NCBI GenBank assembly: GCA_051362555.1
Contig: CM120642.1
Location: 4,526,001-4,590,000 of the forward strand
Origin: Lingula anatina
Taxonomy: Eukaryota > Animalia > Brachiopoda
DNA length: 64,000 bases
Direction of reading: 5' to 3'
Of this stretch, positions 2,960 to 42,512 are shown one piece after another. Position 1 is the first letter of the stretch, and each line of letters begins with the position of its first letter. The position numbers were made by a program, and so were the translations under genes. Under the pieces are notes generated by a model, which had not been told where the DNA came from, ran no database searches, and was given only the letters and a program-made list of their open reading frames with translations.

Positions 2960-4909
2960 GCAACGTCATTCACTCATTTTTTAAAGATATGTATTTTTGC
3001 ATGTCTAGCTGTCTATGTTAAACACTAAGAGCTAATGCTGTTCAAAATGGCATGTCATCTATTTATTTGCTCAACATTTGGTGAATTCAAGTATATCTCA
3101 TTTACTGTTTAACAGATGTATCATCTTTATAGGAAGAAAGTATTTTCGTGTGTTTGTGTGTGTCCCCTTGGCCTTATGAAATGACTCGTTCCAGTATGTT
3201 TGTGATGAAGTTGTTGTCTGTATATTTGGCTGATACGTGAGGTAGTAAATACTACTCAGTTATAATCTTTCTTATTATTTATTGAACTACTTTCCAGTTG
3301 TTACCCACGCTGCTTTCTTCAATTTTATTTCTACCTCATGCAATCTCTAGCGGCCTTCTCGTTCAGTTGTATAAATATAATACGAGCATGTCAATCAACT
3401 CAAGATACTCTACAAAACACTCCCCGCTACTTATTCATTGCATGCTGTCAATGTTGTATCATACATTGTAGAAAACAGAGGTGCGTTATCAAGCTATTTA
3501 TCGCCTTCACAAGAAGGAAAAACATAAACATTTTAAAATTACACAATGAACTTTCCAAATGTATATATATGGGCGATATATAGTCTTGATCAATTAAGTC
3601 AAACCTACAGTGTAGCACTCCATACGTTCCTTTGATTAAACCCTTAGATGTTTCATTCGTCCAAGTGTACTAGTACCTTATACTGTAATATTTCCCCGCT
3701 ACAAATTGTACTACATGTACCGGTATTACAAATCTTCCTGGGGTACGTAAGCACCATTTTTCTCCTACTAACAAAATTTTGATCCTTCTTTCCTGACACT
3801 CGCCATAACTCTGTTACAATCTGGGAAAATTAAAAATGTCCTAAACTTGTAAAGCGTTTTTTTTACATTTCGCCAAAATTTTGACGACTGACTTCACGAG
3901 ATTTAAAGCTGTGTCAAGATGGTTGTTAGTTGGCGAGGTTCGTAAGAAGATAGTAAACTAGATTATTTCTGCCGACGTTTAACATACGATTTTTCTGTGA
4001 CAATGATCAAAATATATAACTTTTCCTCCGATAAGGTCACCAAGAAGTGGTTTATGCATTTAAAGTGTGTTTAAGTTCCAACACTTTGTATCTTAAGTCA
4101 AAAACAACAGTGAATATGTGAAAGAAAAAAAACATCATTGTTGTCCCAGATTTGGCCCTTAATCTTGTAAAGGTAGTCAGCGCTAACGTACCAAACCTAC
4201 ATTATTTTACAAACAAACTGAGGGCTCATCTATAAATTACTTGGTCAATTAATATGCCCATTCTGCTGTTAATCATGCAAACAACCAATTTGGATCTGGT
4301 CTAGACCAGGCCCCAATTGGTTTTTGGCTCAGTCCAGTGAGTAACTGGACTAGATTGGGATCTGGCCTATGACAGTGTATCTACACACACTAACACCTTA
4401 TGTACACTAACACGATTACGACAAACACACAGTGTTTTAGGTGAATGGATATGTATGATGAAGGCATTTTACTTTATCCCCGCCTTCAACATTTATAAAG
4501 AAAAACATTTAAAAACCGATCCGTTGATGCTCTGGTGGCACCATCTTTGTCTGTTCTATAGCCCGCAGCCGTGTCACCATGCATACAAACAGTCACCAGT
4601 CCTTAGGTAATTAAGCCATATACATGCAGATTGAAGAAACTCTCAGTTTCAGAGCCCAAAGCCAATCTATGCTGAATCTTTTATCGCCATGTATAAACAA
4701 AAAAGTTACCCATTCCCAGTCAGTTAGTGCTCAAGTTGGCGCCATCTGCTTGGAAGATATCATACCCTTACTTTCTTCATCAGGCGGTGTCGAGCGGAAT
4801 ATCCGCTAATATAACCCAAAATTTCCCACAACGACCTTAGGCTCGGGGCTCCTCAAATTTAAAATACAATTTTTAAATCGTAAATTAAAATTTCACCAAA
4901 ACTCCTGCA

Positions 4910-7900
4910 CTAATCTTTTTCTCCTCGTAAACACGGACATTTAGACTTCTTCTTTTTAAGGTCCCCTTTCGACAAAGTAATGCCTTGCTCCCGTAGACGA
5001 CGGAGGGGTTTTGGATTCCTATTGTATATTTCTGAAAAGACAAAGACGAAAATATACTACCAAATATATGAAACTTGCTAAATTGCTCTGCAAACTTCTA
5101 CGGGTACATGTATATTACTTTATACGCTTTTTAACTGAACACTGACATGTAGAGAAACAAAGTAAAAATATCCTATATGCTATATTCTTATAACAAGTGT
5201 TGAGGCATTATATAATTTTTTGTTATTATTCTTTGGGAAAATTGATGTTGAATAAAAAAACTCACCATTGATGAGGATTCGGAACACCGTATTCACATTC
5301 TGCTTGGTGGCCGCCGAGGTCTCGTGGAGGTACACGTGGTCAATACCATGCTCCTCTGCGGTAGCGAAAATATTTGGAAGCTGTTATTTGGTATGGTGTT
5401 AGGGGTCGTTCAAAATGAGTTAGGTCGACCTAGCTTGTACGACATAACGTTATGGGGACTCTCGCTGAATGCAATCAGATAAACAGACTGACACACCTCC
5501 TCTTGTTCCCAAAGAATTAGTATAATCACCAGCTTCCTTGTGTTCTACTCAACGCCACAAAGAGGCGTGTTAGTCTTTTAAACTGATTGCATTCAGCGAA
5601 GGTCCCCGCGGAGTTAGGTCGCACTAGCTAGGTGGACATAGCTCAATCTGAACGGCTGCTTAGTGCGAAACGCGTATTTGGTAACTCAAACACGGTTTTT
5701 AGAAGGTAATTTGTCAACAATTTTGGCCTTATTTAAAGAAAAACTATTGACATTTCCACATAAATTAACATGTTGCTATATAAAGGTCTATCGCTTATTG
5801 TATGCTTGAAGCAAAACGCTCTACTATTTAATTCCTGCTTACCAGCAAAAACGTGGGCGTCGTGTGGCGTCACCTCCCTCGCGTATCCCTCACGTACCAG
5901 CAAGTCACGTTTATTCCCCACCATCATCATAATAGTCCTGTCGTGCTGTTTGTTATATTGGCGGTATTCTCGGATCCAAAACGCCAGTTTGTCGAGGCTT
6001 TCCCGCCTTGTGACGTCGTACACAAATATAACACCGTCACAGTCACGATATATCCTGAAATAATTAAAGTACTACAATAAATGGTTTTGAATAAATAAAC
6101 GAACAGAGTTACGTATGCAAAAATTTTTCTGTCTACTTAATTAAGCACCATTCTGTTGTTGAACAAAAAAGAATCTCCACTGTTATAACATTTTCAGTTC
6201 ATTAAGATGACTCACGCCCTGGAGATGGGTGCATAAGTCTCCTGTCCGGCGGTGTCCCAAATCTGCACCCGTACGAAACTGTTGTCATCAATCTCGACGT
6301 CCTTAAAGGAGAATTCGGTGCCGATGGTCAGGGGCTGGGTCGTGCCTGGGAAACGCCCCTCAGTGTAAACTATTTGCAGGTTAGTTTTCCCTACTCCTGA
6401 CTCTCCGAGTAGGATCACTGGAAGGAAAGAGAAAAGACATTTAATTATTTTGAATATTTAAAACTAGTGGATGTACCGGTGTCACGGTTGCAGACCGAGG
6501 TCATGAGCAGGCGTCGGGAGAAATTTCTAATGCACTTAAAAGTCACCAGTGGCTTGTTGACGATATTTTTATCTTTAAAATAAAATATGGTGGTTATTAA
6601 TCAGTTTAACATAAAACTGAGAACAAGACTGAATTTTTCGTTAAAGAACATTTCGGTGTGCCCCACCCGTCTTCGTTTTTCTTACATGAAACCATACTTC
6701 TTCCTCGTCTTTATCCTCAGCAAATCATTTTACATCAGCATTAAATCAGAACGAGTAGCTTGCCTTCTTTAAAATCGAAATTATCATTTATTCCCGCGAA
6801 GCAGAATATAATTTTAGACCTTGGATGGGGGCGTCTCGATAGTCCGAAGGTTCATTGGTCCGAAGGTTCATTGGTCCGAAAAGTGGTAACATTTTTATCG
6901 ATTTTTTAATCAAGGGTTCATTGGTCCGAAGGTTCTATAGTGAACATTCGGACCAATGAACCTTCGGACTATTGAACCTTCGGACTATCGCTACGGCCCC
7001 CCTTGGATAACAGTCTGAGTTTGAGTCAGTCCACACCGGGTGTAGATTCACGTTTGTGAGGTATTCATGTGTTTATGTTAATCAAAAATGTATCCGTGAC
7101 GTTTCACCTCGTCATTCTGGTTATTGGACCGATAACAGAAAAAGAGGTCAGGTAAAAATCTATCATTGCATCGTCTGTTGACCTACCTGTCACCGTTTAT
7201 CACCGTTATTACACCAGCTTTCAATATTGATGACATTTGTTTATCAGTTCCAAGTACCGGTATATCTCCGTACTAACCAACTAATCGCTATGAAAATGAC
7301 ACTACATGTTAAGATATATGTATGGACAAAAATACCTCTGAATTTGAGACTGTAACTTGTGTAAAACAGAAAAAAGAACTACATTATGTGTTTAATAGCT
7401 CTTTCTTTGAAGAAAGTAGACGTTTATCTATAATAAATATGTATCATGCCAAATGCAATTAAGTTATATGAATTATTTTCAACAAGGAAGAAAGAATTAA
7501 TAATTTGTACAAATTAACATATTGAATAAGGGGATCAAGCATTCGGATTGACATGTATGTATATTTATGATCTCAAAACTGCATCACAGAATATGAAAAA
7601 TGTAAAAAAAAAGGAGTATGGACTAAAGATGGGCATCGTGGGTTGTCGACAAAATTGTATGTTTTTTAGTTTTGGTCTTTGGAAATAGAGCGTCAATTAT
7701 AATAAGGAGTAATTTCACGTGAAAGCCGACAAAATCAGAAAAAAGTCGCGCTTAAACAGAATTTTGTGACATCTCTTTGCTGTGCTTTAACCCAGCTTTA
7801 TCTATTGGTGTTTAGATAAGTAGGATAACTGTCATGACACTAGAAAAAAAACCAAAACCTTAAAATGAAGATACCTGTAGGTCACTGCACTTAAACTCAA

Positions 7901-8778
7901 TACAGGTTTCAATCAATTGGACTTTTGGGAAGTATTTTTAATTTTCTTTAATAGAAAATAATAACTATGACAAAAGGAAGATGATTTTATTCACCCCCAA
8001 TCCCACCCTGAACGTGATGCTCAATCCCAAGCTATACATCTTATGGAGGGCAGGCTCTATTTTACACGTTTCTTAACACGGTACCAGTAATAGTAGAATG
8101 TTGACCTGATAACGTTACATAGAAAAAATCAAACAATACAACAAAGCGTACGTGCTATGGCTTGCACGAAGAGGTAGGTGACGACAGTACGCATTTAAGC
8201 AGTACAAAGGTTTTTTTAAACTTTCTATTTTTTTCTACACTCTACTCAATCCCCCTTTCTGCTCAATAACCCTCACACTATCCACACCCCGCCTTTACTT
8301 TACTCTGCACATTGTAAAAACATATTGCACAAAACAACTTGCCCGTTATCTACCTTGTACATATTAATACAATGTGGTACATCTAGGCCACTCATATGAG
8401 ACACTCACCTTTATAATCGTTTCCTTTTGGTCTTCCCACATATTTCGTGGTGACAACTGTTTCTTCTGTCTCATCTAGTTTCTGAACTATGAAATTTTGG
8501 TCACACTCCCCATCGACAATACCCCTCCTAAACACCTCGTAGGCAGAATCATCCTTCCTATCAAGAACGTCGAGAAGTGCTTTCACCTTTTGCTTGCCTG
8601 TTAGGCTTCTGTCGCAAACCTCATCGTATTCCTGGCGGCCTATTTTACTCTCTTGTAACAGCAGCTCCACCACATGCTCGATGTTTAAATGTTGGATCAA
8701 AAAAGTCCGGTTTCTCCTTAAGTTATGAATAGCAGTATTCGTCGTCGTTTTCGTTGATGTATTACGAGCAGAAGCCAT
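4910..8778 (-). CDS. CARD-Rab-like GTPase fusion, paralogue A (5 exons: 8778-8409, 6417-6216, 6054-5843, 5355-5266, 5031-4910; 996 nt, 331 aa)
   Basis: Exon 1 encodes a CARD pattern (LRRNRTFLIQHLNIEHVVELLLQE...KVKALLDVLDRKDDSAYEVF...QNFIVQKL). Donor G|GTGAGT at 8408 and acceptor CCAG|TG at 6418 give NDYK-V-ILLGESGVGKT. All G boxes are present: GESGVGKT, TIGTEF, WDTAGQE, GNKRD, ETSAA. C-terminus KKKKSKCPCLRGEKD*. Intron phases 1,2,1,1; total length divisible by 3. Confidence 0.88.
5402..5659. mobile_element. Non-autonomous TIR element (PIF/Harbinger-like MITE) in intron 3 of CARD-Rab A
   Basis: Imperfect terminal inverted repeats (cgttcaaaatgagttaggtcgacctagct / agctaggtggacatagctcaatctgaacg), flanked by TTA at 5399-5401 and 5660-5662. 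A 3-bp TWA TSD is typical of Harbinger. Confidence 0.55.
6827..7000. mobile_element. 174-bp foldback MITE built from 16-bp repeats, in intron 1 of CARD-Rab A
   Basis: Direct repeat CCTTGGAT at 6819-6826 and 7001-7008 (8-bp TSD). GGGG...CCCC termini. The unit tccgaaggttcattgg is tandem on the left and appears inverted (ccaatgaaccttcgga) on the right. Confidence 0.8.
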
Positions 8779-9001
8779 GTTTAATACTAAATGTTCCACA
8801 CTTTAATTTTGCACGAATACATGGTGGATATTCTTGCAAGGAAGATAATTAAGGCAGTGGAAAAACCCTGTGTATTGACATTAGTGGTTAAACTCTGCGT
8901 ATTTCATGGTAACAGTGCTATAAATAGAATGCGGAATTCCTGCTTGGATCTACAGGTAATTCCCATTCAGTAAGTGGGCTGATAAAATAGCACACTGAAC
9001 G
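8779..9001. promoter_or_regulatory. Putative bidirectional promoter of the CARD-Rab pair
   Basis: 223 bp between the divergent ATGs. Contains GGAAAAACCC (8859-8868), GCGGAATTCC (8931-8940) and GGTAATTCCC (8955-8964), each one mismatch from GGGRNNYYCC on one strand. Also TATAAATA (8919-8926) and GATAA near 8844 and 8981. Confidence 0.55.
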
Positions 9002-12000
9002 ATGGCGGCCAGGGGAAAGAGAAACACTGACTCGGCTGCAAAAATGAAAACGGACGTTTTACTTAAAAACAGGACATTTTTGATCAAGAACTTGCACATC
9101 GATGAAGTGCTAGAATTACTCTATCAGGAGAGGAAAATCGCCAAAACTGAATATGAAAGTATCAACGAAAAGCGAACTCGATCAAAAAGGGTGAAAAAGT
9201 TATTAGATGTCTTGGACACGAAGGATGACACGGCCTACGACGTGTTCAGAAAGGGACTTGAAGAAGGCGACTGTGACCAGGACTTCATTATAAGAAAACT
9301 AGATGAAACTGAGCAAACGACAATCTCCACAAAATTAGTGCCCAAACCGAGCAAAAACCGGTATAAACGTAGGTATTTAACTGGGGGTGTTTTTTTTTCA
9401 CGAGCGGAGTGAGTACATGTGTTGTTAGAGTAAATGTACTTCGGAATTTGTGTGGGATATAAATACTGCAACCTGGTATTGTGATCGTGTATCACGGTAT
9501 GTGAGTCAATTGTTTGCGACCCAGACATGTCAGTCTATATGAACATGTTTTTCATGACCCTCTCTGGTAGTTCACACTGAGTTCATAATTACCTTTTTTG
9601 TTGGAGGGATCAAGGCATTTAAAAGAGACTTTGGTCATTTCTCCCGGCCTACAGGTGGATGTAGATAAAAGCAGGGGACAGATTTTTCGACGATTTATGT
9701 AAGGGAAATTGAAACGAATAATTTAAGGACTTTTTAAATGTTAACCAAGTTTTACTTTATTCAGACACCAAAACCACATACATACGCGCGCGCGCGCACG
9801 CACAGAAGCCCTCCCTTGCTTTACGTAACTCGGACCTGCATAGCTTTATGTGTTTTTTTGCTGGGAAGAAGATAGTAGTCGTGGGGGAGAAGAGAATGAT
9901 ATATCGATTAAAACACATAAGTAAGTCGTTATCACAGATATCATCCCACTCATATAACTCACAGTAGCCAGTGCGTGGCGAACAGGATGTATATACCAGT
10001 AATCTCATCGAGTTGACCCAAATTACAATACGTTAGCTATTGAAATCACTTTCACACACTCACCATTGTAACAACCCTAGCTTTATGTGATATATTTCTT
10101 ATCTCATTGGGAAAATGTAGGACAAAATACGCAACTATTACAGATGAATTTGATGTATAGATTAATTGATTAGATAGTGAACAATGATATGAGGCAAGAT
10201 GCTTAAATTACTCTTTTATGCTGTGAACCTGAATTTTGATACCCTATAGGTTAAAACGCAAGCGCGTGAAAAAAAAATAAAAGATGATTTTGTGGGCCTT
10301 ATTAGTCGTTAGGACTTTGGATGAATAAATTGTGTAATCGTCCAAGTTCAGACAGTGAACTTTGGAAGAAGATGAAGAAATTTTGAGGGAAAGTCCTCCA
10401 TTTTATCCCACTGCCGACTCATTTCTGTGGCATGGATAGGATGAGTGATAAGAAAGTCTGTGTTGATCACGAGATACTTCTTAATAAATGTAATATTTCC
10501 TATAGCTACACGTAGAAATCTGTTTGTTTTCTAAATTTTACGGTGACATTAATCATAAAACAAGTGACACATATGATATGATATGACTTGTAAATATGTA
10601 CGTGTAAGCAGTGGCTATTAAAAATTCTATAAGTACAGAAGGGAAAGAAAGTCGTTGAACAATGCACGACTGGTTAAAGTTGTATGCGGCAAATTTAAAC
10701 AGTATTTTAATGAATTAAGATTACTTGTAAGTGCATTGATTTCTCTGAATCGCTGACTTTTGCAGTTTCACGTGTAAATTCTGTCCAACACATTTGCAGG
10801 GTGATAATCCCTCATAGCAATAACAGCACTGGTATTCCATTATTCTTTACTCCCCTAGCCAGAAAAAAAAACCCAGGCCTTACCTCATTTACGTACATTG
10901 CAACAGTATGCTGATTATATGCGAACCAGATCCAGACCCCCCCCCCCCCCCCATTACCAGCTCAACCTCTAGATCAGAACCTCTTAAAGAATTTGTAGGA
11001 TATCCTTATAAATTGATAGGTGAGGGATATTAAAATGATCTCATATTATATTTGCACCGTATGTGGAACCCCATCACTGTGCAAACGATACAGAAATGTT
11101 TTGCTCTACGCACAAAGGCGGCAGGTGCGTCCTCCTATACAGAGGATACTACACAAAATACTAAAGAATGGCTTTGATTTTTTAACATGGTTAGCTTATT
11201 CATTGGTTGTACAATCAGAATTTTTTGTTAAAAAATATTCTCTTAAAAGTTGAAAAAAACATTGGTACATGACATGAACTCTGTGTTACTTTACGCATTG
11301 CGTTAGGGGTGACACTTTTTTTGCAAGGGGAGTATATATATGCTTTTACGGCAAGACCGTGCCCGGTGTGAAAGGAATGCTTCCGCTAGGAACTGTAGTC
11401 CGGGGTCACATATATAATTAGTACAAGTTAGGGCTAGTCGGAGTATTGGGGGTTAGTATATATACCGGTAGCGTTTAGAGGAACACTGAACGCACTGACT
11501 ATTGCTGTAGGTGAGATATGCCTTGTACATATGTAGCATGTGTGTTTGTTTGAACAATATCGTAATGCTGTTTTCTCTCTCTCTTCCATCCAGTGGTATT
11601 ATTAGGTACTGCAGGGGTAGGCAAGACCAACTTGATGACGGTGTACACTGGAGGGAAGTTCCTAGTGGGGTCCACAGCGACAGTTGGCACGGACTTTGTA
11701 TCTAAGAACGTCACTGTGGACACCGGGAACGAGTGTGAAGAGAGCCAAGTGAGTGTTCAGATATGGGACACGGCGGGCCAGGAGACTTACTGTGCCATGT
11801 CCAGAATGTAAGTCATTATCTATCAGGTGTACCGCCAAGGGAGAGGGGTGGGGGGAGGGTCGCAAATGCCCCCCTCCTCCCATATCCTTTAGTACACACG
11901 TGCACTCCTTGTGCATTTAAAGATAATGATTATAATATGAATATGAATAAAATAGGAAGCTAGAAAAACACTCAAGTAGCGCAAAACTCTGTCAAGTTCA

Positions 12001-13741
12001 ATTTTTATTTTTTTAAACCATTTATCAATAAGTTAATTAAGTTATCACCACCAAAATCTAGTCCATTTCTGGCCTATCCTGAAAATTTTATCAAAATCCG
12101 CCCACAACCTTTTGTATGTTCCTAACAGACACACAAATATTTGACAAATAATTAACCATAAATTAATTGTTGAGTCACCATCATTATCTAATCAATTATA
12201 AGGTAAAACAACTGTTGGTTTTGGTAAAAAAAATAATTTTCCTGTGGTAAATAACGATTTTCCCGTACTTACCAATAATTAATGAATCCATTCCGACATT
12301 CAAAATTATTCCGTGTTTTTTTTTTCAATAAATTGTGGCAAGCATAGATTCCAGAATAATTGTTTTGGTGGTAAAATGAAGTTTATAATTGTTTCTGTGA
12401 ATTGTTTACAATGTGAAATATGAATGGCATACAAACAGTTGTTTTCTCTTTAAGTTACCACATTTCTGACCTATCCTGAAAAATTCATCAAAATCAAAAA
12501 TCAACTTTTTAGTGAGGCTGGTGGCAAACAAACAGACAAATGGAGGTGAAAACATAACCTCCCTGCCGAGGGTAGTTTGGCTGCAAGAGTACGACAAACT
12601 GCCGGTTTGAGCTTTCACGTATACGTAATTCTGCTCTGCAAGTGAAAAAGTTGCTTTAAGTAAAATTAGTTCAACGAATGTTTCCACCAACTTACAATTA
12701 ACTATTTTTCTTTTAATTAACATTAACATTAGAAAAGTAAATAGATGAAGACTAATGAAAGGAACGCATTTCTATAGAATTTTCCATTCCTTCTGCATAC
12801 TGATACTGGAAAAACGTGCTCTCAATAATCTCCAGCACACACAAAACAAACCAAACGGAAAGATGAGAGGACTTGCTGTTCGCAGTTTATGATCACACCA
12901 TGGTAAAGCAAAAGGAATACGAATTGTTACCGGCAAAGATTGCATTCATTGTATAAGGTGTGACGGGGTCTTTTCGCTCTTACAAATCAAAACGTGTACT
13001 CATTTCAGGGTGTATCGGGAAGCACAGGGCGTAATCTTCGTGTACGACATATGCAACAGAGAAAGTTTCGAGAAACTGGATTTCTTCCTCTCGGAGTTTA
13101 GGCAGTACAACAGTCGCTCTGATAGGGCTGTGATGATGTTGGTTGGGAACAAAAGGGACCTGATTGGGAAACAAGCCTACAAACGTGAGGTGACTCCGGA
13201 GGAGGCCCATGGATATGCTGGTATGTATGATTTCGTCTGAAGAACCATAATGGAATAGGACGGAGGAGAAGGAGTTATTGCAACTACTTTGATTGTCTGA
13301 ATATCAATCTTTGAGCAAAATGACCTTTAAAATGCTACTGTAGTTACGGTACTGTAGTGATTGATTACCCGGTCTATTGTTAGGTCATACAGTAGTCATT
13401 AATGGTACAAACGCACTTTTGCCGAACTAGATAAAAAATATCTTTAATTCAAAGGTTACCCGAAATTAGAAATAGTTCAACGATTACAATAGCAGTAGCA
13501 TAAAATTAATCTAAAAATTCGAAAGTACATAGAGAAACATTTTGTCGTGTGCCTCATGTCGGGAGTCTTTATTTTATTTCAGAGGAACACGGCTTGCACT
13601 TCATCCATGAAACATCAGCAGCGACTCAGGAAAATGTGGAAAAGGTGTTCAAGATTCTTGTAAATGGTAAAGTTTTTGTCATTTAGTCAGCTTATTTTCC
13701 CCTCCTTCCTTTTTACTCCTTTGATCCCCTCCCAGCCACCC

Positions 13742-13816
<75 letters not shown>

Positions 13817-14069
13817 CTCACTTTTTAGTCAGCCCTATTTTTGCTAGCTTACCGGGTCCTCAAGATCTCCGGTAAAGATGGATCTATGTGTCTTCCAACG
13901 ACATGCGCTTGGAAATTACAGTGATTTTTCTTTTTTATTTTAAGAAATCTACAACAGAAACCCTAGCAGCGGACTGACTCAGAAGGATGACTCCGTAGTG
14001 TCTTTGACAGACGTCAAACTGAAACATAGAAAGATGAAATGCCCGTGTCTTCGGGGAGAAGCCGACTGA
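9002..14069 (+). CDS. CARD-Rab-like GTPase fusion, paralogue B (5 exons: 9002-9368, 11594-11807, 13009-13220, 13583-13666, 13945-14069; 1002 nt, 333 aa)
   Basis: Exon 1 encodes a CARD (LLKNRTFLIKNLHIDEVLELLYQE...RVKKLLDVLDTKDDTAYDVF...QDFIIRKL). Donor C|GTAGGT at 9369 and acceptor CCAG|TG at 11593 give NRYK-L-VLLGTAGVGKT. Motifs TVGTDF, WDTAGQE, GNKRD, ETSAA. C-terminus KHRKMKCPCLRGEAD*. Intron positions and phases match paralogue A. Confidence 0.88.
12450..12575 (+). repeat. Dispersed interspersed-repeat fragment (related copies at ~12040-12135 and ~38760-38917)
   Basis: The three copies share cctatcctgaaaa(a/t)tt(c/t)atcaaaatc. Two end in ...acagacaaa...aaaacataacctc...g(g/a)ggta. Family not assigned. 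Confidence 0.55.
13741..13815. repeat. Compound (CT)n(CA)n microsatellite in intron 4 of CARD-Rab B
   Basis: Read directly from the sequence. Confidence 0.95.
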
Positions 14070-14545
14070 AAGTAGTAATGTTGGTGATTATAATCAGAAA
14101 TCAAACTACTGTGTATGGCGATTTTCTCCTAATGTCATATATTGAACTGAGTCAACATCTTCAGTGTGTAGGGTATCCCTGCAGCTGGGATGGAATTCAT
14201 CCGGGATAACCAAATACGAGGCTCTGGACACTGTGTGACGTCACTGGCATACGAGGCTAGCAAACATGCATGAAGCCGCGTGAGATCGGAATAGCCTTAT
14301 AACTGAAAGGCTATTCCGGCGATGTCGTCTGAGAAAGCAATACAGAGTAACGCGTAAAACATGATGAATACAACCATTGTGCAGGTCTAGAGAACTTAAG
14401 AGAAAATAACCCTCACAATAAACTTGGATGAATTACGTCAGCTCTTATCCGTAGTCGCATTGCACTCACTAGCGCTGTGTCTAACCACTCCCTCATCCAA
14501 ATCTCGCAACATCTCGCTTCGTTTTATGCCTAATCGCGAGACTTA

Positions 14546-15688: not shown

Positions 15689-17694
15689 ATAGAAAACGTT
15701 TAAGTCTGTGCACAACAAGACTATTACCTACTCATACGTGCCATATGTGACATATATTTTTAGATCTTTGCTGTGAAATTAAGGGCAAATGTAAATACAA
15801 TAGGCCCTATAATTAAAATTAAGGGCAAATGTAAATACAATATAATTATAATAGACGTGCATCGATATTATAAAGTGATACTTAGCATTGGTGACAAATG
15901 TTCTTCAAGTCTAGTAAGATGTTTGGTTAATTATTGCACTGCGTTATAAATATGCAACAAGCTGTATATTATGTATTTTAAATAGTACTGTTTCACCCGT
16001 TTCTATTATTTTAATTTAAGCTGATATAATTTTAATAAAAGCTGTCTTGACTCCTTTCCTTGGTGTGTATGTGTGTTTGTGTGTGATTTTTCACTTAAAC
16101 CAATTCGATCAACGCAGAAGCAATATTTGAAACATTTTCTGTTGCCATCAAATAACCATGATTTTCCTTTGAGCAAAAGATGTGGCCGATGATGTAACTT
16201 CCATCTAAAACGATCGTCGTGCACGGGTACAGAATGTATCAGACCTCTTAGTGCTAGTTGCACTATCACTGGCTATAATAAACGGTTGACCGAAGAAATA
16301 AAACTGACCAAGTTCAAAGGACGTACAGGCGAGGACAAACAAAGCTGTGCTGCAACGATTTTGTGTTTTCAATCGATTACAGTATCGATCTACTTGTAGA
16401 TACCCCACTTTGGTGACTCTGGACTTAACTTTTATTCTTAGCAGTTTAAGTCACGAATCTTCAAAAATATTAAGACTTCAATGTGGAGGTTATTTTGTGT
16501 CTATTCGTGATCATTGTCAGGGATTATTTTGATGTATAGCATCATAAATATATCATGGAAAATTTGGAGATATGTTACTTTCTACTGCTCATTTTGTCAC
16601 CGTAGTATCTGAATGTTTGCTATTTCATCTACATTTAACAAACTCTCTGGACCCATGGGGAAATTAATATCATATACATTTCTGTTTTGTGGGGACTGCA
16701 CGTACACTGTATAATTTGAGAAATGGCACTTTGATAGAACATAGAACTTGGATTAAATTCTGATGTAACAGATATTTTTATACCCCCTATCACCAACCGA
16801 CTACGGGTCCGTACCATTACCCACTGTTCTCTCTTAGTCTCATAATAATAAATACTGTTTTTTTATATAGAAAAGGGTTATTTAAGAATCAATGCATAGT
16901 TTTTTTATCTTTTTGCTTAAATAATTAAAAAAACACAGAATCACAAGAGGGTGATTTTACTTTTAAGTAAAATTTTACGAAATCTTGGGATAACGAGGAG
17001 AAACAGATACGAACGTGCATGAGGAATAGTTATCGATGTTTTTAATTTATTTTATTTATAATTATTTTTTATTATTTATTAATATTGTTATTCTTATTGT
17101 TATTATTATAATTTTGAAAATTCAACTTTGTTGTAATGGACGATGTGCTTAATTGATTTATCATAACAATAACTAATGATTTAGAAGACAACGTGTTACT
17201 AGTAAGCCCCCAAGAATACTTCAAACTCAATTTTCACTCAAACTTAAGTCAATATGCAGGCAACGGTCTGGTTTCGTATAACATCGACGTGCCAGTTTCA
17301 ATATTTTAAAAATTAGAATTGAAAAGAGGTATCAGATTAAAGGCTGGGTCGATATACATTGCAAACACCTTTTTGTAAGAGACAAACTGACAAACCGGGA
17401 ACTGTGTTTATTTGTAAAGTTCTTATCAAGGCAGGAGGAAGTTCATCTTGGCTTCACCAACTGTTTTATATACAATAAGCTGCTTTATGTAGACAAAGGT
17501 GTGATCAGAGTTTTATACTAATAGACGTGGTTCAATGAGCACTGTTTGCATTGGGAAACAGCACCAATGATCAATGCTATTATCCTGGCTAAAGAAATAA
17601 AAAAGTCGATAGACTGCCGTGACAGCAAGACTGGTTATGACACAAGAGGCATACGGTGATAGTAGCAGAGAACTGTAGATACAAAAGCACCAAG

Positions 17695-20046
17695 ATGCTG
17701 CTGTATCTGTCACTTTTAATTGGCCCCCTTTGTGTTTTGTCTATTAACCAATCTGGACCTTCGTACAAATGGGGGTACTTTGAGAGTCACATCAGCGCGC
17801 GACTTGCAAATGGCGTGTTCGGAGGAGGAGCGGCAAAAACCTTTACCGTGCAGAAAAGGTCGGAATGTACAACGCTATGCATGCGTCTTGGGCCCGAGTC
17901 GTGTGTCTCTGTCAGTTTTAACTCAGCTGAGTTGATCTGTGAAGTTTACGATAAAACTACTGACGACGACTCCAACACTTCTCCAGTAGCGAGTGAAGGA
18001 TGGGAGTATTTAAATCCAAAGTTCGGTAAGTCTAATGATGTGAAACCACCATTATTTTGTTCACACCTATCATTCAGTAATTTTCGTCTATTTTCTATTA
18101 TTTTCGACTATCTTCTGACTTCTGAGGATTACCTTCTCTCTCTCTCTCTCTCTCTCTCTGTTTTGAAGTGTGCGCGGTGCGTGCCTACGTCGCCCTTTCA
18201 TTAGGAAAGATGTAATCCGTAGTTACCTACATGTACAATACGACAACCACAAATAACACCTTTTTTCTGGTTAAAAATCAACATTTTAGACGTCAGCTTA
18301 TGGCTGTGGAGTTCAAGAATTGTTCTATCAGCACCTCATCATTTTGGTAACGATCTAAGGAAGCACTCTTTAGCTTTTTAATTTTTTAAATTGTATTTTC
18401 GGTTGCTTTGATAAAAAAAATTCTCATTAAATTGATAAACAAAGTGCATTGCCACATGTCTAGCCTTTTCTTTCGATATTCATCAAGCAGACAAATCACG
18501 ATATACATGTATAAACTTAAATGTATATATCGTCTTTAAAACCGTATCACATATCGAGCATTTAGAATACCGAAAAGATTATTTTGACCATGTATTGCAT
18601 TTTAGTTTTCCCAAACGAAGATTTTTTCTCGCTGAAATGTTTTATTGTTGCCCTTAACGATGTTTTTCAATCATTCTTGACATATTTGCTTTTCTTTGTT
18701 GTTGTTCCGGGCTTCATGTCTATTGTGGGTACCGTGGCATTGACCGCGCAAATTTATGGGTAATTGATTGTCGAAAGAATCAATTAAGAATAAAGGGCAT
18801 CTTATTGAGGATAAGGTCAATTTAAAACACATTGTACTCGTTTAAAGTGGTGCGCTTACTTTATCGATAAATCGATTAAGTGAATCATGGGACCTGCTCT
18901 TTGTTATTACAACCTCAGGTAATTTTATTTTAGGGTTTTAGCTTGAAAAGAGTCTTGTCTCAAATCCAATTGCAAATCAATCTGGAAATGAGCACTGGCA
19001 TGGACAGGGAGTGCATCTCAGAATATATTCATAACATGTTCCGGATCCTTGCCATCTTCCTATCACCCGGGCCTTTGTATAATTTATTTTTATGTGATTT
19101 GCGCCGCAATGGAAATCATTCGAGACAGCCCAAAATGTCGCGACTTATCGTAAAAAATCAGGTGAGACCGATGGAAAAATAATCGGCAACACAACCTTCC
19201 TGTAGCTAATGGTATTATTATTATTATAGATTGTTTTAAAATTGTAAAGGAGGTTATCGATTAGGTTCATAACTTCCTTTAAGTGGGGTTCATATATTTG
19301 CATATTTGCATTTGCAAGGGGTGCTACGAGACGACTCTTTGACCTAAGTAATTGTAAACAAGTCAAACCTCGATACGGGACATCAAATTCTTGAATATTT
19401 TATGAAGACTATAGAAGCAATAGTAGTATAGGGTCGTATTCAATAACATTATTAGGCTCAATGGTTTGTGAAATAATGGTGTTCCAGGTTTTATTCAAAC
19501 ACATCACTTTTTAGTTAGATAAAGTTACAGTACCGTCTATTTATGACAAAATAAGACTATCAAATTATTTTCTTGTCTTTAAGAATTGTGAGGGGTCAAC
19601 TTTTCATTTTCAGGCCATTTATTGGCATGTGTATTAAACAGTTGGTAGTTGTTCTTCGGTCCACTTCTCATTAACAAAAAGGGTTTGTTGGACTATTGAG
19701 TAAATCTACTTTCATCCGTCACCTGGATCAGTCGAATAGTAGGCTACATGTATGATAAGATTATAAAGACACAGGCGGGTTCTGATTCAAAAATAGTTAA
19801 GGTCGAAAATTGCTGTACATTTTTTGACCAAATTAAATAACATATTGCACCTGCTTGTAACAGGAAAGGTAGTGTTGATGTTCCAGAACAACAACTGTTT
19901 TTATTAGATTTGACTGCTGTGGATTAACCTTGCCCAGGCGCCGTCTATGCTCTTTATGTTTTAGAACCATCCCATACTATAGTGTTTTTAACCGGCCTTA
20001 AGGTGCATGTAACACTCTGGAAATGGCCAATTTGGTTAAGGTGTTT

Positions 20047-34053: not shown

Positions 34054-35238
34054 GGGGAGACCGGGGCTAGTTGGACCCCGGGGTAAGTTGGCCCCCCGTC
34101 AATTTATGAAAAAGTAACTACGAGGTAAAAAAATTGGCCACATACTCTTGTAAAGTGACCGTAGCCTACAATGCTAAGGAAGTGTCGGACGTTAAAAAGT
34201 TTTACTTAAGCGGTGAGTCCAAATAAACGATTTTTGCACCTAAAAGTAATTTTGTTTAAGAGAATTAAAAATCAAGTTTCATAGGCTTTTGATCGAATAT
34301 AATACATGTATAGGGCATCAAACTGAAGCTCATTGTTTCAAGTTTCACAGAGATATATCATCGTTGCTCATTCTAGCATCATAAATGGTTGCCATCCTTT
34401 AATATAAAAAAGGGGGAACCGGGGCTAGTTGGCCCCCTAGACTTGGGCCAAGTTGGACCCTCATATTACCCACAATCCTTTGCGCGCAACGCTGTTTGAA
34501 ATAAACAAGTTGGTGAAATTGACAAAGCTTGCCGGTGTTTACCGTCTGATTGATTTTATTTAATTTGCTAGTGTCTTTTCGAAAATTTATATTAGAAATG
34601 TTCTGTTGATTGTATGTATTAAAAAGTAAATCCACTGGACTTTCCTCAGAAAAACATCTATTTTGCCTTAATTCATTTTAAGGGGATTCCTTTGTATTTA
34701 TAGTGTTATATGTGGCCCCAAGGGGATTTTCCACCCCTCCCTAGATAGAGACCATTGTTGAAACAAACTCAATGGTTTAAAACTGAATTTGTTACTTTCT
34801 TTCAAAACGAAAATTTATTATTCGTTTTCATTCATTAAAAACCTGCTTTATACCATTATTAATTTATTCTTAATTAAAACAAAACAAATTTTATTGATAG
34901 ATATTTTGGTTCTTGCAACACATACCCCCCCCCCCTACAACGTGATGTACGGAAACCTCAATAAATCTGCCTCATTTGAACTATTTATTCATCAAAGACT
35001 CTCAAAAATCAATTTAATAAATTACAAATTTATAAAAATGTATTTCAAGGCGTTTACATGGGATATATACTTCATTTTCGTATAGGGGGGCCAACTTGCC
35101 CCGACCATGGGGCCAACTTGCATACGTAGCTTAGTTCATAGGGCTTACTTTGAAACCGGTTTTGTTACTCTAAGCCATTCCTAGTTGGCTCTACAAGGCC
35201 AAAAGTGTCTGACTGGGCCAACTAGCCCCGGTCTCCCC
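34054..35238. mobile_element. 1.2-kb non-autonomous DNA transposon with TA TSD (Tc1/mariner-pogo-like)
   Basis: Perfect 21-bp TIRs GGGGAGACCGGGGCTAGTTGG (34054-34074) and CCAACTAGCCCCGGTCTCCCC (35218-35238), flanked by TA on both sides. TIR-like motifs recur at ~34080, ~34412-34460 and ~35086-35120. No transposase ORF. Confidence 0.85.
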
Positions 35239-36402: not shown

Positions 36403-37602
36403 TTAACGCTTTTCTTTACTACACCCCAAAATTTGCCACATCGCTAACCTTACGTTCCGATTTAGAACGCCATAGATAAAAGGGTTTAGTCCGGACCCAA
36501 TTCGAAAGATCAGTGTAGCAATGTATTGCGCTACTATATACTCGACATCATATTCATCGTTCTGCCAAGTCCAGATCACTATCGGGTATGGCAGATAGCA
36601 TAACATGTAGGATCCGCAAGCAATGATAATGCTTTTGGTCAACGCGATCTCTCTTTTCAATAATTGGGCTTCAGTGTTTTGGATTATGTTGCTACTTATT
36701 CCGTATGATTTTCTACCTTTATTTTTCCAACAACAAAAAGATATTCTTGGTTTATTTGATTGCTGATGGGATGTTTTGATTTCTGCACAGCCTGTATGCC
36801 AGGGTGGGCGATCATTCAGTGGCCTTGGATTGGTGACGTCAGCTGATTCGTTTGAACTTTTTCGAACTTCACTGCCAGTTGCTAGAAGTAGTCGTTTCCT
36901 ACTTAACCGAACATAACGGAAGATAGCAATGTAACAGTAAGTTGCAATCACAAGACCAATAATTATTTTAAGAGACCTCAGGCTGATTAGCAATGTTGGG
37001 AATGCAGTTTCAACCCTGCATCTGTCGCCTGGGATCCATGTGATAAAGAACAGATTCACGCAACAAATTGGTGCCATACATATGTAAATAAACACACATC
37101 CGATGACCACTCTTCTTTTTGACATTAACACTTCATATTTGTGGGGCAGGCAAATCTTCACGTACCGCTCAACAGCAATAAACACTAAGTGAACCACGTT
37201 CACCGAAGAAATTAACGATCCTAATATCAGCCGAACAATGCAAAAATACACACTCTCTTGTAACGAGTGTAATGGCGGTAGAAGGTAAACCAAGTACTCG
37301 CCTGTAATCTGATATGGGATGCAAACGATATTGACAATGATGTCGGATATAGAAAGGCTAATAATGATAATGTTTGCCTGCGTTCGCAGTCTTGAGCACT
37401 TCAATATTGTAGCCAGAATCAAGGCGTTTAAGACGACGCATATTATCGCTTGAAGTCCGTTAGCCGCGATTAAATAACTGCAGTCAAAATCTATACAAGG
37501 CAAAAGGTGGATGCTCCCGTTTTTAGCATATGTCAAGTTCGTTGTTGTTAGGTTTGTGTTGTTTGTCTTCCAGAAAACATCGCCTTCTACACTGCTATTC
37601 AT
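36403..37602 (-). CDS. Class A (rhodopsin-like) GPCR, 399 aa, intronless CDS
   Basis: Seven hydrophobic segments and N-terminal N-glycosylation sequons. Motifs LNALI (N1.50), SLSISD (D2.50), IAVERY, CYLPY, NPFIYG. Confidence 0.93.
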   Translation of the reverse strand: MNSSVEGDVFWKTNNTNLTTTNLTYAKNGSIHLLPCIDFDCSYLIAANGLQAIICVVLNALILATILKCSRLRTQANIIIISLSISDIIVNIVCIPYQITGEYLVYLLPPLHSLQESVYFCIVRLILGSLISSVNVVHLVFIAVERYVKICLPHKYEVLMSKRRVVIGCVFIYICMAPICCVNLFFITWIPGDRCRVETAFPTLLISLRSLKIIIGLVIATYCYIAIFRYVRLSRKRLLLATGSEVRKSSNESADVTNPRPLNDRPPWHTGCAEIKTSHQQSNKPRISFCCWKNKGRKSYGISSNIIQNTEAQLLKREIALTKSIIIACGSYMLCYLPYPIVIWTWQNDEYDVEYIVAQYIATLIFRIGSGLNPFIYGVLNRNVRLAMWQILGCSKEKR

Positions 37603-39609
37603 TGGTAACTATGTGTTCTACACAGAATTATTTCTTCTCCTGCTTTCTTCTGTTTCTCTGAAAGCAAAGGCTTAAAAGCAAAATGAATAGAAAAGTGCAA
37701 GGAAAGTTCTGTCATCGGTATTCAAATAAATATACTACCTTGGCTCCTAGGTATTATTTTTTCTTTCAAAAATGTGAAACGTATACCATGCGAGTGGCTC
37801 TCTTACATTGGACAAGCGATGTTCTTTGTACATTTCCTTGAAGAAAAAATATGGGACGCTCTCACAAGCGGAACATATCATTCTTTTATATTTAGTCAGA
37901 TATGGTTGGCAATATAAACATCGCCAGGAAATAAAAAAACTAAATATGTTAAGAGAAAAAATCTGTTTGTTCTTAGTTCAACAATTTATATAACTCACCC
38001 ACAGCAAACGGGATTAAAACTGCCCATAACTTTGCAACACGTTTCTCTCTATGCAAACTGCTAACATATGCTGCTGAACTTTGTGCGCAACTAGAACTTT
38101 TTCGGCAACTGATTCCTTTCAGCTGTTTTTTCTGCGAGATCTCACGTGTAAATCGGTTCTACTGTGAGTAACTGGCTTTTATTTAGTTTCTAAACATATA
38201 ATTAATAAGCGTTGGATATTCATGTGAGGGGCTTCATCCGGGACTCTGGATCAGAAGAATTCTTCTGGGTTCAAAAATAGGGGATACAAATAGCCATGCA
38301 ATCTGTACATGAACTGTGGATACAAAAAGTGATCTATTGCTATTGTGTATGTAACCTAACCTGGTTGGAGAAATCATAAATAAAATAAATTAATTATCAC
38401 GAACATATCAGAGGTAAATGGTATTTTGTTTTCTGGGTTAACTGTGACTACTTCCAGCTTTAAGGTATACATAATCAAGAGTGAAAAAAGCACTCAGAGA
38501 GCGCACCTCCGACAAGTGTTAGAGGTATCAGTTTTCTTTCTAAGTTGCCAGGCCATTAATCGGTGACTGTTGTTCACTCTTTGGCAAACCAGCGACAGTA
38601 GGCCTACTAGTGGTCGAATGACAGCTTAATAGAGTCTGTGAGCTGTATCGTCAGAGTGGGTCAAAGTGACCTATTCTGAAAATTGCAGACTTCTGCCAAG
38701 AAATATAATGAACGAATAATTTACCATTAATTAATTAATTAATTAATTAATTAAATAAACAATCATCTCCAAAAACTAGTCATTTCTCCCTTTCTCGATT
38801 ATGGCCTATCCTGAAAATTTTATCAAAATCTGTCCAAGACTTTTTGCATAATGCTGCGCACAGACAAACAAACCAAAAAACTAACGGGACAAAAACATAA
38901 CCTCTTGTTGGAGGTAAATATGAACTGTACCATTATGGGGCCATTCAGAATAGATTATCCGAGTACCAACTGATCCGCCGCCTAAATATGGCCGACCACA
39001 CTTCAAAAGCGATGCCGCTGATTCCCGATGGTCTCCCTGCCTCAATGGAACGCAATTAACGCCAGGCTTCATTTGCGTGTATATTTTAGGTGGTGTGGAA
39101 ATATGAAAGAAGTGATTATGTCCTCTGGACTTGCATTAAAAGTGACCCAATCAAGCGAAATAAACTGTGTGGGTGGTGCTATTTTTGCGATTTTACTCGA
39201 AACTAGATTCCAACATAACTCATGGGGGTGGTAGGACGCGTGCGCAGTGGTACATGCATGTCTAAATAGAGGGTAGAGCACGCGACCTGGTCACCAAGAA
39301 CTAAATTATTAAATTTAAAATGGAATAAGACATCGAATCCAAGAGCAAAGCTGGACCGAGCAGTGATTCGTGAGTGCTAGCGGTAGAAAACTGCTTTTTA
39401 CCCTAAAAAATTCATTTTACTGGAAAATCCAATGAAGTGTACCTTTAAGAATTTGTATTTGGTTATACTCTACTTCTATGGTTATATATAAAACGGACAC
39501 AACATATCATTAAATTGGACAACTAAAGATTATTCTGGGGTCATAGTTCATTAAAAGTTTGGTTTAAAAGTTAAGACTAACTTGCGAAACAGTCCGGCCT
39601 GGGGGTGTC

Positions 39610-40565: not shown

Positions 40566-41858
40566 TCAAATAATTGCTCCCATCTCCAGCCTGATTTTCC
40601 GATTCAGAAGACCATAGATAAAAGGGTTTAAGCCAGAGCCTATTTGAAATATCAGTTTTGTAACTTGTTGTAGCACTACAAACCAAACCTCATTCTCATA
40701 CCCACCCAAACACCAAATAACAAGTGGATATGGTATATAACATAGCACGTAGGAACCGCACGTTAAAAGTATAGTTTTGGCCAACTTAAACTCTCTTTTC
40801 AACAACGAATCTTCCATCATATAACGACCTGTTTTCGAGATATTATTTATTTCATTTTTACAACAACAAAAACATCGAAACCCTCGTTGTTCTCCCGATT
40901 GCTGACGAGCTGTTAATGTTTCGTCGCTAGGGGACGTCTGGAGGCGTCTCACAGGTACGTGGAAGATTGGACGACTTTGGCCAACCGAGATTGCCTCCTC
41001 ACGGGGTTCACCTTCACGGTTCCTAGCATCGGGACAGCTTGGTTGATGAGAAGGAGATGACCTGTCAAGACTGGCGGTGGTTAAAACGTTCACTACGCAA
41101 CGTCGTTCGCCAAGCTCACTGTTACCAGTATACGCCATGCGGAGCTGTATTCTGCTAGCTCTGACATAACGAAATATGGCAATGTAGCAGTAAGCTGCTA
41201 TGATGAACCCAACAAAGGTGTGACCAGCTCGCAAGTTAATTAACACAGGTGGGAAAGCAGTTTCATTACTACACCTGTCTCCAGGAATCCAAATATTAAA
41301 GATCAAATGAATACAACTCCACACGCTATTGTATATGTAAATACATGCGCATCCAAAAAACACTTTTCTTTTTGACATCAGGGCGTCATACTTTTTTGGT
41401 AAGCAAATCTTAATGTATCTTTCCACCGCTATAAAGACCAGGTGGAAGACGCCTACAAAAGTGATTGCCGAGTTCAATGTCAACCGGCCAAGGCAAAAAT
41501 GAACGTTGTGCTGCATTGGGTGTAAAGCAGATACAAGGTAAACCAAATACTCGCTAACAATTTGCCATGGGATACAAAAAGCACTATTTATGACACCCGA
41601 AACAGTGAGACTTAACATAATAAGGTTTGTCTGTGTTTGAAGCCACGGGCATTTTATTATTGTTGCCAGGATCAAGGTGTTTAACGCAAAGCATGTAACG
41701 GTCTGGGCACCGCTCAGTGACATAAAAGGAATACAGTCAAAATCTATACAAGGCAGAATCAGAGTGCGTCCCTCTTCAAATTGGGTATTGTTTTTCTTTG
41801 CTGAATTGGTAAAAATTGGTGCCAAACTAAAAACATTCTCTTCCGTACTGCCGTTCAT
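40566..41858 (-). CDS. Class A GPCR, 430 aa, tandem paralogue of 36403-37602
   Basis: Shares LPCIDFDC, EYLVYL, HLVFIAVERY.KICLP.KY, WIPGDRC..ETAFP, YCYIAIFRYVR, LLKRE and IGSGLNPFIYG with the neighbouring receptor. ICL3 is longer. Confidence 0.93.
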   Translation of the reverse strand: MNGSTEENVFSLAPIFTNSAKKNNTQFEEGRTLILPCIDFDCIPFMSLSGAQTVTCFALNTLILATIIKCPWLQTQTNLIMLSLTVSGVINSAFCIPWQIVSEYLVYLVSALHPMQHNVHFCLGRLTLNSAITFVGVFHLVFIAVERYIKICLPKKYDALMSKRKVFFGCACIYIYNSVWSCIHLIFNIWIPGDRCSNETAFPPVLINLRAGHTFVGFIIAAYCYIAIFRYVRASRIQLRMAYTGNSELGERRCVVNVLTTASLDRSSPSHQPSCPDARNREGEPREEAISVGQSRPIFHVPVRRLQTSPSDETLTARQQSGEQRGFRCFCCCKNEINNISKTGRYMMEDSLLKREFKLAKTILLTCGSYVLCYIPYPLVIWCLGGYENEVWFVVLQQVTKLIFQIGSGLNPFIYGLLNRKIRLEMGAII

Positions 41859-42512
41859 GGTTCCAACTATCTGTTTTTCTATTCGATCTTTGATTTCATC
41901 TCTGACACCTGAAAATAGAGAGTTATAGATGATATTTTAAAAAATGCAATACATGGATACGATTTTTAAAAATAACAGTCCGTTAATGTGATAGCCATGA
42001 AATAAAGTGTTTACCCTTTGAATTTTGGACAAAGTATCAAGTTGCTGCACTTGGGTATCTTTCCGTGTCGATAAATTTTGAAATAATTGACGAGATAAGC
42101 ATTTGGGGTGCGTTGTGCTGAAGTGCCTTCAAATCTATTTTGTCCATTATACATCTTTGTATTGATGATGGAAAAAAGTAAAACAACTCTAAATCTGACG
42201 CGCACGACACAACTTCTGCAACACTTCATAGGAGATGCTATACTCAAGTATATAGCGTGCCAGTATGTTAACACGTAAAGTGGAACTGATATGTTATTTT
42301 TGACAGATACAAGCCAAACCCTTCACTTCAAAAGATCTGCAGACATTTACAAATAAGGCGTCTGGGTTTGGTGTTGCGGTGACAGTGGTATTGTTTTCGA
42401 ATTTGAGGACACCGTTACTCTAATCCCTGCCCAAAATCAATTTTGTGGAAAACAAAGTATTTGAATAATGTATAATCAGATTTAACATATTCTGTTGCCA
42501 ACGGCAGCACTT

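Follow-up and report, generated by a model that had tools for sequence, protein, structure and literature searches.

Two divergent genes of Lingula anatina join a CARD to a Rab GTPase domain

A head-to-head pair of CARD-Rab genes

The DNA analysed here, called the window, is a stretch of 64,000 nucleotides from the brachiopod Lingula anatina (GenBank assembly GCA_051362555.1, contig CM120642.1, positions 4,526,001 to 4,590,000 of the forward strand), and all positions below are counted from its first letter. Between 4910 and 14069 lie two genes of five exons each, A on the minus strand and B on the plus strand, which stand head to head and encode proteins of 331 and 333 amino acids, respectively. 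In both products a CARD, which is a death-fold domain, is followed by a linker and a Rab-type G domain, and the two proteins share 179 of 326 aligned residues (55%). All eight introns are GT-AG, and their phases are 1, 2, 1 and 1 in A as in B.

Exon 1 of gene A (8409..8778, minus strand) carries the start codon, which is the sole Met codon of this exon, the CARD at about residues 18-103, the linker and the first residues of the first Rab strand (DYK), and it ends at a phase-1 donor. It is followed by intron 1 of 1991 nt (6418..8408), by exon 2 (6216..6417) with the G1 motif GESGVGKT, switch I and the G3 motif DTAGQE, by exon 3 (5843..6054) with the G4 motif NKRD, by exon 4 (5266..5355) with the G5 motif ETSAA, and by exon 5 (4910..5031), which encodes a tail with a hydrophobic patch (ITL), a basic run (KKKKSK) and CPC plus six residues before the stop codon. 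Gene B has the same plan on the plus strand: exon 1 (9002..9368) with CARD, linker and RYK before its phase-1 donor, intron 1 of 2225 nt (9369..11593), exon 2 (11594..11807) with GTAGVGKT, switch I and DTAGQE, exon 3 (13009..13220) with NKRD, exon 4 (13583..13666) with ETSAA, and exon 5 (13945..14069) with a VSL patch, a basic run, and CPC plus six residues before the stop. In both genes exon 2 was assigned by Pfam profile and motif match, exon 3 by profile, motif and junction reads, exon 4 by motif and junction reads, and exon 5 by sequence and junction reads. A sequence-only reading of this DNA had claimed that the CARD exons end at phase-1 donors after DYK and RYK and that splicing across introns of 2.0 and 2.2 kb rebuilds the P-loop, and this is what was found, as the spliced frames are open in A and B with the joint peptides YKVILLGESGVGKT and YKLVLLGTAGVGKT. 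Since the exon 2 frames of A and B have no Met upstream of the P-loop and only one Met occurs in exon 1 of A, an intact G domain needs a start in the CARD exon. No third copy was found inside the window by tblastn. The spacer of 223 bp between the two start codons (8779..9001) is likely a shared promoter, and a pattern scan suggests three kB-like 10-mers in it, at 8859, 8931 and 8955.

Expression and splicing were examined in RNA reads from 4 of the 9 listed runs, of which 6-30% of each run was aligned, with depth counted in 334-base bins. In runs X7 and X9 there were reads across all eight introns. The CARD/Rab joint of gene A (6417/8409) was spanned by 7 reads in X7 and 1 in X9, and that of gene B by 4 reads in X7 and 6 in X9. 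A silent C to T change at the 9368 donor in the sampled animals explains why the latter joint was recorded as 9367/11594 with a single T in between. Reads spanning the junctions 8409/6417 and 9368/11594 had been looked for, and 8 and 10 of them, respectively, were found. None of the four runs gave any depth in the intron bins 7840-8173 and 9510-9843. In X1 and X4 there was no depth over the CARD exons, and because of this we consider expression to be low and likely dependent on tissue or state; X1 had 2 reads on the last joint of B. Among the joints listed within 4500-14500, which are all but two, none runs from exon 2 to an alternative first exon, and neither intron 1 donor has a poly(A) signal within 400 nt of it.

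The X7 and X9 reads differ from the coding exons of the window at several sites per hundred, and at the listed sites the difference is fixed in all reads, which indicates that this RNA is from a divergent population or from a closely related sister species filed under the same name. When the 40 best supported of the 202 differences were examined, 23 of the 30 listed coding differences were silent, where about 22% of the sites are silent (binomial p about 2e-9), and in the CARD exon of B all 4 of those listed were silent, the one at 9368 included. The excess of silent differences indicates that genes A and B are under purifying selection.

Database relatives, domain anatomy and origin

The fused sequences are already public, under plain Rab names only. 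An automated Lingula anatina protein model named 'GTP-binding protein ypt3' (P0002) differs from the product of gene A at 1 of 331 residues, and another named 'RABA4d-like, partial' (P0001) differs from that of gene B at 3 of 259 residues and is without the last 74 residues of B. A search of 1.84 billion representatives brought up a third Lingula CARD-Rab, named 'RabC' (P0123; 310 residues, 48% identical), which is encoded outside the window and is suggested to be genomically linked to P0002. It carries CARD and Ras by Pfam, and precomputed Pfam results on the NCBI and UniRef models of all three proteins list both families. Its G3 motif is DCPGKG, with Lys in place of the catalytic Gln, and its GTP hydrolysis may be slow. 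A, B and P0123 are therefore a three-member CARD-Rab family, of which A and B are expressed and spliced, and which has so far been seen in one species. No CARD-Rab from another species was seen among the 150 listed of 40,572 matches in the same collection; a Pfam scan of 26 proteins picked for long matches or N-terminal extensions found a CARD only in the three Lingula ones; and PF00619 and PF00071 occurred together only in Lingula proteins among the 120 of 317 and 120 of 284 matches listed. In the ESM Atlas, where clusters of at least 50 members were searched, there were plain GTPase clusters only (<0.9). Word searches are insensitive here, as a word search with the CARD exon missed P0002, and brachiopod genomes are likely few in the searched collections, so the family may extend beyond Lingula. 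Three other candidates (P0205, P0156 and P0127) were rejected, since their matches reach the CARD region of the query yet no CARD was found in them by Pfam. Other odd Rab extensions were seen in these searches: in P0205 a Rab5-like domain is preceded by a helical N-terminal region, P0188 is a DUF2237 fused to a Rab, and P0127 has two Rab domains with ankyrin repeats.

The profile scores agree with the earlier assignment of exon 1 as CARD and of the later exons as Rab. For PF00619, whose Pfam cut-off is 23.9 bits, exon 1 of A scored 38.0 bits, exon 1 of B 49.2 bits and P0123 36.3 bits, and exons 2 and 3 of both genes scored with PF00071. The three G domains are 44-62% identical, yet the CARD, 53-63% identical among the three, has been kept above the cut-off in all of them. 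The best natural PDB match of the B CARD exon is RAIDD, which is a weak match (E 7e-4). An AlphaFold2 model of P0002 (mean predicted local distance difference test score, pLDDT, 76.9; predicted template modelling score, pTM, 0.59) has six helices at 9-103 with block pLDDT of 47-93 and a linker at 101-118 of low confidence. Its G domain is modelled with confidence, most of the blocks lying above 90. Folded alone, the CARD gave a pTM of 0.22, which is not a usable model. In structure searches with the fused model the matches were taken up by the G domain, for which Foldseek gave a template modelling score of 0.91 (by target) to Rab1 and Rab11 chains, and comparison with the Rab9A structure gave a VIA Z of 25.8 and a root-mean-square deviation of 1.7 over 170 residues. 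Among the structure matches were Rabs bound to bacterial proteins, namely VirA-Rab1, LidA-Rab8a and LepB-Rab1b. Pfam found only CARD and G-domain families in P0001, P0002 and P0123, with no COR domain, NB-ARC, NACHT or EF-hand; Ras outscored Roc by 144.9 to 84.6 bits, and about 37 residues follow the G domain.

The four nucleotide motifs are intact in both A and B. In switch II, however, the Rab11 signature RYRAITSAYY is replaced by TYAPISRAIY in A and TYCAMSRMVY in B, and the RabF3 motif is nearly lost (0-1 of 6 positions). This erosion suggests that the usual Rab11 effectors are no longer used. In the tails of all three proteins an aliphatic-X-aliphatic patch precedes CxC, and such a patch is the element read by Rab escort protein (PMC3504004, in part); the basic run is present in A and B. 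The CxC is terminal in P0123 (CKC), whereas six residues follow it in A and B. A tolerance of up to five added residues after the cysteines is cited in the available portion of PMC3504004, so A and B may plausibly be prenylated, although this is not certain.

The sequence-only reading had held that the fusion occurs independently in two diverged paralogues, and as a statement about evolution this claim has to be given up. The G domains of A, B and P0123 form a single starred clade (96/96) on a long stem, which indicates one fusion followed by two duplications; an independent origin of the A and B fusions is ruled out by this clade and by the CARD identity of 53-63%. The parent of the G domain is less easily read from the trees, which by themselves leave it undecided. 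In the free tree the three CARD-Rabs fall, on their long stem, outside the starred Rab11 clade (96/92). Their union with Rab11 is not rejected (p of the approximately unbiased test, p-AU, 0.37, and 0.27 in the first panel), but neither is a union with Rab2 (0.06), and in the first panel Rab11, Rab26/37 and Rab6 were all unrejected. Of the PDB sequences, A matches Rab2B/2A best and then Rab11, while B matches Rab30 best, followed by Rab2B, Rab11 and Rab18. The tree positions and the first-ranked matches weigh against a Rab11 parent, and the evidence for it comes mainly from the introns.

Eighty Rab loci from metagenomes were spliced-aligned to the coordinates of a Rab11 protein (P0046), and 16 gave introns. 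Introns at V11, A141 and D168, all of phase 1, were found together in 7 of the 80 loci, while one locus had two of these and four had one. All seven three-intron loci carry Rab11 motifs, although two of them (L018 and L019) look like duplicates. Introns 1, 3 and 4 of both A and B map exactly to V11, A141 and D168 in phase 1 (rough chance 3e-4 to 8e-7), so that the CARD/Rab joint itself lies at V11. Intron 2 of A and B maps to A76 in phase 2, a position which is absent from the fetched loci and which we take to be that of intron 2 of human RAB11A. Because the Rab1-, Rab2- and Rab8-type loci were intronless, they give no direct control for the subfamily specificity of these positions, and no direct literature source for Rab11 intron positions was found; conserved intron positions are subfamily-specific among seven other Rab subfamilies (PMC3504004, in part). 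With three of the four introns at Rab11 positions, the parent is likely Rab11, and since the switch II signature of Rab11 has been lost, A and B are on this evidence to be classed as Rab11-derived rather than as Rab11. The CARD/Rab joint is then likely the old Rab11 intron 1, with the CARD added to, or replacing, a short first exon. The earlier argument that the first Rab residues are encoded in the CARD exon is true as an observation, but at an old Rab11 intron position this is the ancestral state and nothing special to the fusion. N-terminal domain grafting of a similar kind is reported for lophotrochozoan RIG-I-like receptors, Lingula included (PMC8998645, in part). Among the fetched loci, the Rab11 genes L008, L017-L021 and L025 have one more intron, of phase 0 and at codon 7, which leaves a 13-nt micro-exon before the V11 intron.

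The introns of A and B and the rest of the window hold other elements. In intron 1 of A, at 6827-7000, there is an inverted-repeat element with 54-nt arms that are 91% complementary and with internal short tandem units; far more RNA reads fall on it than anywhere else, these reads come from other loci, and the element is likely a MITE-type (miniature inverted-repeat transposable element) repeat. A second inverted-repeat element, in intron 3 of A at 5407-5654, has 93-nt arms (78%) and also collects reads from elsewhere. Intron 2 of B has two copies of a 50-nt repeat at 12064-12510, and because the reads there carry other letters a dispersed repeat is suggested. Downstream of the pair on the plus strand, an exon at 17641-18204 encodes a signal-peptide-like start and a PAN/Apple domain, and exons from about 20.5 to 33 kb encode F5/8 type C and SUEL lectin domains with repeated cysteine-rich segments; judged by their domains these exons likely belong to one large extracellular lectin or adhesion protein. 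On the minus strand there are two tandem intronless genes for rhodopsin-family G-protein-coupled receptors (36403-37608 and 40566-41936), and downstream of this receptor pair is another trio of kB-like 10-mers at 34636-34731, two of them close to consensus. Exons of a nucleobase/ascorbate permease (PF00860) lie at 47649-48659 (minus strand), and an exon at 57226-57504 (plus strand, WFGDH...), without a Pfam match at 0.001, presumably encodes a protein that resembles SET/nucleosome assembly protein.

What a CARD on a Rab might do

We propose that A and B are membrane-docked, GTP-gated CARD adaptors, and from the features described above we would give this about an even chance of being right. 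The sequence-only reading had suggested a nucleotide- or membrane-switched platform that couples vesicle or phagosome state to caspase or NF-kB signalling, which is plausible and in line with this proposal. The cysteine and basic tail would be lipid-modified and would tie the protein to a membrane of endosome or phagosome type. In the GDP state the protein would be dispersed in the cytosol, and GTP loading would concentrate it on the membrane, where the CARD, on its flexible linker of about 18 residues, could reach the local density at which it binds or nucleates other CARD proteins. Nucleation barriers in CARD assemblies have been described (PMC9342958, in part). The partners could be the caspase-Y enzymes of Lingula, CRADD, or the paralogues themselves, and the output would be local caspase or immune signalling. 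Lingula is reported to be without APAF-1 and caspase-2 and to have CRADD and six CARD-bearing caspase-Y paralogues (PMC11463336, in part). A bolder form of this proposal, which we regard as doubtful, is that the CARD-Rabs are the activating platform for CARD caspases: loading with GTP at an endosome or phagosome would pack the CARDs so densely that a caspase-Y filament is nucleated, A and B would act as a co-regulated hetero-oligomer, and P0123 would be a slow-hydrolysing form. If this is true, vesicle state would directly switch cell death or inflammation in a lineage reported to be without APAF-1 and caspase-2.

Several observations weigh against the adaptor proposal or against parts of it. 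Depth over the body of the CARD exon of A is only about 1-2 compared to 4-10 over the Rab exons of A, which may be due to 5' drop-off or to reads too divergent to be counted. The RabF motifs match the consensus at only 13 of 27 positions in A and in B and at 15 of 27 in P0123 compared to 22 of 27 in Rab11 P0046, although RAB-28, the lowest Rab accepted in PMC3504004 (in part), has 48%, which equals the figure for A and B. The setting of the cysteines in A and B, with six residues after CxC, differs from all those listed in the available portion of that paper. The genes which neighbour A and B in the window are not clearly immune. As for the spacer, its three 10-mers are at most one mismatch from the kB consensus, and only 1 of 2000 shuffles was as good, but 6 of 1268 other scanning windows, in two places, score as well. 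Because the kB patterns were chosen after the sites had been seen, and 2 of the 4 patterns have no site at all in the spacer, the kB-like sites suggest a lead only.

Four other explanations can be set against membrane-docked adaptors. The first, which we hold to be unlikely, is a trafficking Rab with a private extension, whose CARD, comparable to the coiled coil of large Rabs, only self-associates or autoinhibits and has no link to caspases or immunity. Large Rabs do use their N-terminal extensions for self-association and localisation (PMC8303950, in part). A and B have kept their G motifs intact, and expression in 2 of 4 runs could reflect tissue-specific traffic. The extension is, however, recognisable as a CARD in all three paralogues, the erosion of switch II is at odds with keeping the traffic effectors of the parent, and the kB-like sites speak weakly in the same direction. 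The pair could also be membrane-tethered inhibitors that hold CARD caspases or adaptors captive on vesicles, at times and places set by the Rab cycle. Mammalian CARD-only proteins damp signalling, there is no catalytic or sensor domain besides the G domain, and an NF-kB-inducible pair would suit negative feedback, though this last point is weak; a nucleotide switch would nevertheless seem more elaborate than a simple decoy needs, and we rate inhibition as decidedly unlikely. Improbable in our judgement is a tripwire, in which the Rab domain is a bait for microbial effectors that modify or cut Rabs and thereby release or cluster the CARD. The fast divergence on a long stem, the eroded switch II, the Lys for catalytic Gln in P0123 and the effector-bound Rabs VirA-Rab1, LidA-Rab8a and LepB-Rab1b among the structure matches would fit this, but a bait should mimic its target, whereas RabF identity is only 13-15 of 27, and the within-species differences are mostly silent and not diversifying.

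That the fusion is an artefact or non-functional, with separate CARD-only and Rab genes or relics at the locus, is most improbable and is largely refuted. Reading through exon 1 meets a stop within a few codons (8392 and 9412), the depth over the CARD body of A is low, and a short read-through isoform of the CARD exon may be hidden at a bin size of 334 bases. On the other side are 18 junction reads at the two joints, the empty intron bins, the lack of poly(A) signals near the donors, exon 2 frames without a Met before the P-loop, the mostly silent coding differences and the third paralogue. The sequence-only reading was thus right that the fusion is not a prediction artefact, and the results it had named beforehand as refuting did not appear: no alternative first exon is seen among the listed joints, the CARD profile recognises exon 1, and no prior description was found in the papers searched.

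Comparison with known Rabs and death-fold switches

Full-text literature searches found no description of a CARD-Rab protein, with dedicated work on Lingula immunity and most supplements lying beyond their scope. Neither Rabs nor GTPases are mentioned in the available passages of a death-fold atlas (PMC11874512), a lophotrochozoan apoptosis paper (PMC11463336) and an amphioxus architecture paper (PMC2575513), and the CARD is likewise not mentioned in those of a large-Rab review (PMC8303950), a Rab survey (PMC3425129) and the Lingula genome paper (PMC4595640, main text and one supplement). Extra domains are very rare among Rabs: the Rab survey counts three Rabs with an extra domain, and the two named there carry EF-hands (PMC3425129, in part). 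The architecture thus appears undescribed; the earlier statement that no characterised CARD-Rab is known stands as regards the literature searched, but the sequences were already in databases under Rab names.

The likely closest relatives in the G domain are in the Rab11 subfamily (Rab11A/B, Rab25, Ypt31/32 and plant RabA). Of the four introns of A and B, three agree with Rab11 genes in position and phase, Rab11 chains rank high among the PDB matches, and two of the database names, ypt3 and RABA4d-like, also hint at Rab11. Unlike the Rab11 proteins, the CARD-Rabs add an N-terminal CARD of about 90 residues and a linker, are only about 36-37% identical to them, and in A and B end in CxC plus six residues. 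The large Rabs Rab44, Rab45/RASEF and Rab46/CRACR2A also have an N-terminal signalling module before a C-terminal Rab (PMC8303950, in part), and Rab44 and Rab45 derive from the Rab8 group (PMC3425129, in part). Their modules, however, are EF-hands and coiled coils, whereas here there is a CARD, no EF-hand by Pfam and a length of only about 330 residues.

APAF-1 has the domain order CARD-NB-ARC, NLRs have CARD-NACHT, and DAP kinase has Roc-COR with a death domain. Like the CARD-Rabs they combine a death-fold adaptor and a nucleotide switch in one chain (PMC8195603, in part); that paper treats death folds with STAND, AP-GTPase and AIG switches, and its available passages do not mention Rabs. Unlike in these proteins, the switch of a CARD-Rab is the small G domain of a Rab, followed by a tail of membrane type, and there is no NB-ARC, NACHT, COR, kinase or repeat sensor. 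CRADD/RAIDD is comparable in its CARD, as RAIDD is the best natural PDB match of the B CARD exon and CRADD is present in Lingula (PMC11463336, in part), but its second domain is a death domain and not a GTPase, and so weak a match does not name the donor gene. In the known death-fold switches the nucleotide-binding part is a STAND ATPase or a Roc-COR GTPase, and a CARD wired to a Rab would be a minimal way, in 330 residues, to tie death-fold assembly to membrane identity and GTP. The CARD-Rabs would also be a possible means by which brachiopods, without APAF-1, activate their CARD caspases, and because these proteins are small and have the standard GTP- and GDP-locking positions, the idea is testable in cell culture.

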